Source of the DNA: Escherichia coli
GTDB lineage: Bacteria > Pseudomonadota > Gammaproteobacteria > Enterobacterales > Enterobacteriaceae
Assembly (NCBI RefSeq): GCF_002854065.1
Contig: NZ_CP024147.1
Strand: one strand, 5' to 3'
DNA: 64,000 nt
In this document: positions 3,709 through 4,605 of the stretch, piece after piece
Numbering within the stretch: position 1 is the first letter of the stretch
Layout: the number at the start of each line of letters is the position of its first letter
Notes under the pieces: model-generated
The model's database searches: none
What the model was told of the DNA's origin: nothing
What the model saw: the letters and a program-made list of their open reading frames with translations, nothing else
Program-made: the position numbers and the translations under genes

Positions 3709-3717
3709 CGTCCAGAG
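3709..3717. repeat. Target-site duplication (right) of IS1 copy 1: CGTCCAGAG
   Basis: Identical 9-mer directly abuts both IS1 ends. Confidence 0.92.
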
Positions 3718-3853
3718 AACGTTGAATATTATGTAATTTTCCTGTAATTGCCAGCGATTGTTTAAGGTGCTGCAAGAGAGCTGTCGCCTGCAAAGAAGGT
3801 TTAGTGATCAACAATAATGTATGACCATGAATACTATGGACTTCATTAAACAT

Positions 3854-4605
3854 GATGAAACCCCGCTTTTTTATTGATCGCACACCTGACAGCTGCCTCT
3901 AAAATAGAAGCACCAGAAGTACTGACAGATGTTGGACTGCTGTGTGTAGTAATAAATCAGCCCTAAATGGGTAAAATATAAAACTAATGGATTACATCTG
4001 ATTTCAATCTAGCCATTACAAATCTTAAATCAAGTGTTAAACATGTAACTAAATGTAACTCGTTATATTAAAATGTTAACTTTAAGGTTTTATTAAGTTT
4101 AGGAATGATAGAAAAGTTGTACATTTTGTTTTTATTGCACAATTTTAAAAAATCATACAAATGGTGCTAACTTACTAATAATGCATATAAAAAATATTTC
4201 GGTGTAGTCCTTTCGTCATGTAAAACGTTCTTGTTTTTTCTCCACACCACCGTGGACAATTTTTTACTGCAAAAAGACGAGGTTTGTCACGGCTTGTGCG
4301 CAAGACATATCGCAGCAATCAGCGACGGGCAAGAAGAATGACTGTCTGGTGTTTTTTGCTAGCGGAAAACGGAGATTTAAAAGAAAACAAAATATTTTTT
4401 GCGTAGATAACAGCGTATTTACGTGGGTTTTAATACTTTGGTATGAACAAAAAAAGAAAAATACAACGCGCGGGTGAGTTATTAAAAATATTTCCGCAGA
4501 CATACTTTCCATCGTAACGCAGCGTTAACAAAATACAGGTTGCGTTAACAACCAAGTTGAAATGATTTAATTTCTTAAAAGTACGACCAGGTCCAGGGTG
4601 ACAAC
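3854..4605. promoter_or_regulatory. csgD–csgB divergent intergenic regulatory region (csgDEFG and csgBAC promoters, csgD 5' leader)
   Basis: About 750 bp AT-rich non-coding region between divergent csgD (start 3853, -) and csgB (start 4606, +). Known hub for OmpR/CpxR/IHF/MlrA/RpoS and sRNA control (established knowledge). Individual sites not mapped here. Confidence 0.7.

Follow-up and report, generated by a model that had tools for sequence, protein, structure and literature searches.

The window analyzed here, a stretch of 64,000 nucleotides of an Escherichia coli chromosome (contig NZ_CP024147.1), carries the csg locus with csgD (− strand, ATG at position 3853) split by an IS1 element after codon 48. 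The 5′ stub ORF (3704 to 3853, − strand) consists of the 48 native codons followed by one IS1-encoded Gly and a stop codon within the IS1 right repeat; the 3′ fragment (2426 to 2940, − strand), comprising codons 49 to 216, is severed from the promoter. In-silico removal of IS1 and one repeat copy restores an intact, 216-amino-acid CsgD. Besides the IS1 insertion and its 9-bp duplication, the locus shows no rearrangement, and the other six csg genes are intact: csgB (4606 to 5061), csgA (5102 to 5560), and csgC (5619 to 5951) on the + strand, and csgE (2032 to 2421), csgF (1591 to 2007), and csgG (731 to 1564) on the − strand. The latter three lie beyond IS1 as seen from the csgD promoter, and the sole known promoter for csgEFG is now across IS1 from these genes. 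The 897 bp between IS1 and csgB (3709 to 4605, 35% G+C) take in the csgD-csgB regulatory region and, in antisense, the stub and leader of csgD. CsgA of the window is 152 amino acids long, compared to 151 in K-12, with one more Gly in the Gly-rich part of its N terminus and several substitutions; strain 100416, whose csgD is intact, has the same allele (WP_000771428.1).

The inserted element (2941 to 3708, + strand; 768 bp, IS1B-type) has the ends GGTGATGCTGCCAACTTACTGAT and ATCAATAAGTTGGAGTCATTACC in the window sequence. A repeat search located the target-site duplication as a perfect 9-bp direct repeat, CGTCCAGAG, with its left copy at 2932 to 2940 and its right copy at 3709 to 3717; this target is present once in strain 100416, where the site is empty. 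The left inverted repeat (2941 to 2963, + strand) overlaps IS1's own promoter and contains an outward −35-like hexamer, TTGGCA, on the − strand (2954 to 2949), while the right inverted repeat (3686 to 3708, + strand) contains outward-facing TTGGAG (3695 to 3700). The terminal arms (2940 to 2963 and 3686 to 3709) are 79% complementary, and both the length and the imperfect ∼23-bp repeats are those of IS1. The promoter-like site of the element, CTGCCA-16-TATGAT (2948 to 2975, + strand), lies upstream of the insA ORF (2996 to 3271, + strand) and the overlapping insB frame (3190 to 3693, + strand), with an A6C frameshift motif (AAAAAAC, 3247 to 3253) of the kind that serves the −1 frameshift between insA and insB in IS1. 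Thus, all three features by which we recognize an IS1 (size and repeats, insA-insB frameshift, and 9-bp duplication) are present at 2941 to 3708. A terminator scan found no intrinsic terminator inside IS1 on either strand.

The exact right junction was found in 1 of 5,426 complete E. coli genomes, that of CUWW06 (NZ_CP182139.1), isolated from wastewater in Thailand, whose IS1 copy is 100% identical to that of the window. RefSeq annotates the identical sequence in CUWW06 as an IS1B transposase, a joined CDS with programmed frameshift, and the csgD pieces as two pseudogene fragments. In this public genome the insertion was already annotated, and events of its kind are well known. The window is 99.97 to 99.99% identical to CUWW06, with 10 SNPs in ∼50 kb. 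A second IS1 in the window (18888 to 19655, + strand; 99.87% identical), inserted in yceI with the 9-bp duplication CGGCGTGGT, is absent from CUWW06, which argues that the two strains are distinct close relatives; since they are nearly identical yet distinct, the csgD::IS1 allele was inherited within a small clone. The CUWW06 chromosome (4.65 Mb) is rich in IS1, with at least 39 IS1 right ends. Strain 100416, isolated from human stool in Gambia, has the empty site and, after in-silico excision of the element, is colinear with the window, with 7 mismatches and 0 gaps in 6,123 bp.

We searched for both types of csgD-IS1 junction in the 5,426 complete genomes, with a reach of ∼660 bp, and the resulting counts are lower bounds: at least 41 of the genomes have an IS1 in csgD. 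From these we mapped 15 loci, one per apparent group, counting positions from the csgD stop codon. They represent ∼14 to 15 independent events, 6 to 7 of them co-directional with csgBAC (at positions 507 for this allele, 416 for the EAEC 042 lineage, 210 for 13P484A, 370, 298, and 430) and 8 in the opposite orientation (at 507 for AVS0935, 309, 292, 61, 192, 452, 410, and 552). The strain 127 group has its left junction at 210, as in 13P484A, plus an adjacent 130-bp deletion, and the two probably stem from one event. Within the reach of the search, these counts show no orientation bias that would mark selection for the geometry described below, although n of ∼15 is too few to detect a modest bias. 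Further lesions in csgBAC were found at only two mapped loci, both with co-directional IS1: in one, csgA is cut by an IS3-family element, and in the other, csgC is frameshifted.

In AVS0935 (NZ_CP124405.1, IS1 at 1296 to 2063), the element occupies the identical 9-bp target. Its orientation is opposite and its sequence is only 93% identical to the window copy, and the AVS0935 insertion is clearly an independent event. Such a double hit does not mark the site as a hotspot: with ∼15 events in 651 bp, we estimate a ∼15% chance of at least one coincidence, so that the shared target is unremarkable. Some other csgD::IS1 genomes have lost DNA beside the element, into csgF (locus L006) or into csgE (L016), or have, on one side of IS1, a junction with pgaC (L015) or unrelated genes in place of the native flank (L010); all four look like IS1-mediated adjacent deletion or rearrangement.

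Upstream of the disrupted ORF, the csgD core promoter, TTGATT-16-TAGATT (4006 to 4033, − strand), is identical to that of K-12 and fits a transcription start at 3999/4000. Over 3709 to 4608, we found 13 differences from K-12 in 902 aligned columns, none of them in the core promoter and two, both small, in the csgD leader. The 5′ UTR (3854 to 3999, − strand), which corresponds to a UTR of 148 nt in K-12 with stem-loops SL1 (−83 to −28) and SL2 (−10 to +16) (PMC4152358), contains all known sRNA-binding sites. Its first 92 nt (3908 to 3999, − strand) match the sRNA family ES056 (Rfam RF02752) over the full model (positions 1 to 92 of 92) with 114.1 bits, well above the gathering score of 43 (E = 1.6e−21). 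ES056 was reported as a small transcript in K-12 RNA-Seq data, starting ≤1 nt from an earlier experimentally determined start site (PMC4676190, Table 3), and is the only Rfam family found within 2400 to 5700, where it lies outside IS1. One of the leader differences shortens the A-run 5′ of the csgD ribosome-binding site by 1 base relative to K-12; the same shortening occurs in 4 of 15 other loci compared. The other is a SNP at 3935 (G on the + strand, C in the mRNA), where SL1 begins (position −83 in K-12). This segment is present in 5,323 E. coli genomes, of which only CUWW06 shares the G; the nearly identical empty-site strain 100416 has a C, and this is its sole difference from the window within 3709 to 4605. 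One SNP in 897 bp fits the background divergence between the two strains (7 in 6,123 bp), and the simplest reading is drift once constraint had been lost. The SNP does not coincide with the csgD mutations reported from chemostats (Maharjan 2012), which map, on BW2952, upstream of the ATG by 10 and 177 nt for the SNPs and by 206 and 235 nt for the IS1 insertions.

The resulting transcriptional geometry is as the earlier note had described it. Both insA/insB and csgBAC are on the + strand, with csgB 897 bp 3′ of the IS1 right end (given previously as ∼900 bp), and the csgD promoter and leader, essentially intact, drive a 48-codon stub aimed antisense into insB/insA. This arrangement is a deterministic structural fact rather than a statistical signal; chance bears only on whether the orientation has meaning, and the census gave no sign that it does. 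As detailed below, the functional effects that had been attached to the geometry, and labeled speculative, in the note (transcriptional read-out toward csgB, damping of the transposase, and a regulatory RNA decoy) are unsupported.

A consensus scan of the + strand between 2976 and 4855 found no consensus-type promoter. Hybrid promoters require, in addition to an outward −35-like hexamer at the IS1 end, a −10 of the form TAnnnT in the flank at a spacing of 16 to 18 bp. The hexamer is present at both ends of this copy and the −10 at neither: the sequences at these spacings are GAACGT, AACGTT, and ACGTTG for right-end TTGGAG, none a usable −10, and GATATC, ATATCT, and TATCTC for left-end TTGGCA; not one of the six has both A2 and T6. 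The lack of a −10 at the needed spacing argues against such a hybrid promoter at the right end (toward csgB) and at the left end (toward csgEFG) alike. The best junction candidate, a weak match spanning the right junction (TTACCC-17-TATTAT, 3704 to 3732, + strand; 8 of 12 consensus positions), is one of 19 such + strand matches in the AT-rich interval 3600 to 4620 and is not distinctive. Nor does an intrinsic terminator decide read-through: IS1 has none, and the sole + strand candidate, a terminator-like hairpin with a T-run in native intergenic DNA (4241 to 4266), is weak (−6.3 kcal/mol, z = −1.07), with the number of terminator-like sites in the intergenic region not above that of shuffled sequence. 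RNA structure at the junction was no more stable than that of shuffles on either strand (z = 0.97 and −0.06). The + strand route from IS1 to csgB is C-poor, and Rho loading along it would not be obviously efficient. On the − strand beside the IS1 left end, native csgD coding sequence contains a predicted promoter-like TGGACG-16-TATTAT (2910 to 2937; 9 of 12) directed toward csgD′-csgEFG, which occurs in every csgD gene.

Published work on IS1 ends places promoter activity at the other end of the element. The terminal 600 bp of IS1 gave no reporter expression, and only a partial promoter, dependent on the adjoining 20 bp, was found at the 5′ (left) terminus (PMC5526668, eLife 2017). In strain 55989, Richter et al. 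described a strong −35 near the IS1 end that faces pgaA, together with a fuller promoter slightly farther in (PMC4287979); when we inspected the 55989 locus, this end proved to be the left one (TTGGCA), which in the window faces csgD′-csgEFG rather than csgBAC. We place the IS1 −35 on the basis of the sequence, PMC5526668, and the 55989 locus. In ST131, IS1 elements upstream in the same orientation raised afaA expression through a hybrid promoter, lowered that of osmB, and left ugd unchanged (PMC8764528); the latter two outcomes argue that IS1 read-through alone does not activate neighboring genes. The csgD::IS1 allele resembles the known IS1 hybrid promoters (Prentki 1986; afaA in ST131; pgaA in 55989; tetA-yfp, Steinrueck and Guet 2017) in having an outward −35-like hexamer upstream of a co-directional operon, but it differs from them in that neither end has a −10 partner, csgB is 897 bp away instead of adjacent, and the documented left half-promoter faces away from csgBAC.

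Could the insertion nevertheless confer low-level, CsgD-independent expression of csgBAC, whether the transposase transcript reads through or the junction forms a hybrid promoter? The earlier note's suggestion of read-through from the IS1 right end to csgB drew on the shared direction of the two transcription units, and the stretch from the insB stop to 4241 indeed lacks an intrinsic terminator. Hybrid promoters can form at IS1 ends (PMC8764528, PMC4287979), and the weak junction match might itself give weak outward transcription. We nevertheless found no support for the suggestion, given that the canonical right-end −35 lacks a −10 at 16 to 18 bp, that the documented half-promoter belongs to the opposite IS1 end, and that independent csgD insertions show no orientation bias, with both loci damaged in csgBAC being co-directional ones. 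With IS1 in this relative orientation, osmB expression fell and that of ugd did not change (PMC8764528). Read-through would entail 897 nt of untranslated RNA across a regulator-laden region and would meet the csgD promoter head-on under the very conditions in which curli matter, and transcribing csgBA would still not suffice, since export of curli needs csgEFG, now separated from their promoter. In addition, with at least 39 IS1 right ends in CUWW06, the IS1 promoter should be kept repressed by InsA acting in trans, in line with general knowledge of the element and with the titles of Zerbib 1990 and Machida 1989. We therefore regard this kind of csgBAC expression as highly improbable.

In the other direction, the csgD promoter does point antisense into insB/insA, as had been proposed; that it damps transposase expression is the part of the proposal that found no support. 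Transcription that runs into IS1 from its flanks has been reported to inhibit IS1 transposition, the promoter and leader are intact and aimed into the element, and the − strand of IS1 has no intrinsic terminator, all of which would favor a measurable decrease in expression of the transposase or in transposition of this copy. On the other side, the stop codon that closes the stub sits at the edge of IS1, followed by ∼400 nt of untranslated RNA that is rich in C and poorer in G (29 to 36% C compared to 21 to 25% G over 3680 to 3280), a classic setting for Rho, so that, judging from base composition, Rho-dependent termination is likely long before the transcript reaches the insA start or the IS1 promoter, ∼700 nt from its entry. 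A terminator in an IS1 end region is also described (Hubner 1987, cited in PMC12095673). Moreover, activity of the csgD promoter is confined to stationary phase at low temperature, the promoter of IS1 is in any case weak and repressed by InsA, and only one copy among about 40 or more would be affected. A small cis effect on this one copy is possible in principle, but a measurable reduction seems unlikely. Element-encoded antisense control, as by RNA-OUT of IS10, relies on a dedicated promoter within the element, whose RNA overlaps the translation start of the transposase; in csgD::IS1, by contrast, the source is the external csgD promoter, and transcription enters at the insB 3′ end, ∼700 nt from the insA start at 2996. 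The allele does resemble polar IS insertions with Rho-dependent termination, in that translation ends where the IS begins and the RNA beyond is long, untranslated, and C-rich; polarity in either orientation is classical for IS1 insertions. For the window allele, polarity is predicted from composition and from this general behavior of IS1. As to the remaining suggestion, that the stub RNA acts as a regulatory decoy, the sRNA sites are in fact kept, but the idea is not peculiar to IS1. The known sites for RprA, McaS, OmrA/B, and GcvB as well as for RydC are all in the csgD UTR or at the start codon (PMC4152358), that is, from the 5′ end to ∼+16, and the stub transcript (leader plus 48 codons) retains every one of them. 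Compared to the csgD 5′ UTR sRNA hub of K-12, including ES056, the sequence and predicted stem-loops are preserved and the Rfam match is full length, whereas the mRNA body is replaced by IS1 antisense, the base of SL1 carries a SNP, and the A-run is shorter. A truncated csgD RNA could then be an altered sponge for RprA, OmrA/B, McaS, GcvB, and RydC that shifts how much of these sRNAs is available to their other targets when CsgD is missing, and the SL1-base SNP at 3935, private to 1 of 5,323 genomes besides the window, might be cited in favor. Titration of sRNAs, however, has been described for the intact csgD mRNA (PMC4152358), and since this activity and a 92-nt leader RNA both exist in the wild type, the insertion brings in no novel kind of activity; an RNA that terminates early and is poorly translated is usually less stable, its abundance is more likely to be lowered than raised, and a single SNP in 897 bp is at the level of background divergence from 100416, as expected from drift. 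An altered sponge is, in our view, quite unlikely. That the allele is anything beyond a null, be it through a SNP-bearing stub RNA that acts as a rewired sponge or through co-directional IS1 giving low-level, CsgD-independent csgBAC transcription, we judge very unlikely; were either true, the allele would differ in function from that of AVS0935, where the identical site carries IS1 in the opposite orientation.

We think it likely that a simple IS1 insertion of fairly recent date has inactivated csgD and that the transcriptional geometry of the allele is incidental. On this simple-insertion reading, the csgD promoter would still fire as usual, in stationary phase and at low temperature, dependent on RpoS and MlrA. 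Translation would stop at the IS1 edge and Rho would end the untranslated, C-rich transcript within the insB antisense, leaving csgD′ and csgEFG unexpressed. The csgBAC promoter should be silent, as csgBAC transcription requires CsgD (PMC5514686). Outward transcription from the right end would come only from the weak, InsA-repressed IS1 promoter and would have to cross ∼900 nt of AT-rich, untranslated DNA head-on with the csgD promoter. The predicted net phenotype is curli-negative, a state that arises repeatedly in E. coli with IS1 in either orientation.

There are several parallels to such inactivation. IS1 was found in csgB of O78:K80 (cited in PMC6029578) and between csgD and csgB in the curli-negative strain FAM21845 (PMC5514686); in glucose-limited chemostats, IS1 inserted 206 and 235 bp upstream of the csgD ATG (positions mapped by us) and also in csgB (PMC3446313). 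Together with csgD::IS1 of EAEC 042, these cases share with the window allele the element, the locus, the 9-bp duplication, and the expected curli-negative outcome. The window allele differs from other csgD::IS1 alleles in its site: among complete genomes, CUWW06 alone shares the insertion after codon 48, and in AVS0935 the same target is occupied in the opposite orientation. For csgD::IS1 strains such as EAEC 042, the literature searched contained neither a published phenotype nor RNA data. The window thus adds one more natural curli-negative allele and shows csgD as a recurrent target of IS1 in both orientations, a recurrence consistent with loss of curli having been repeatedly selected or tolerated. 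The strains also constitute a natural orientation control: CUWW06 and the window strain have one orientation, AVS0935 has the other at the same 9-bp target, and 100416 provides a nearly identical empty site, so that the set of CUWW06, AVS0935, and 100416 would permit a direct test of how IS1 orientation affects neighboring transcription.
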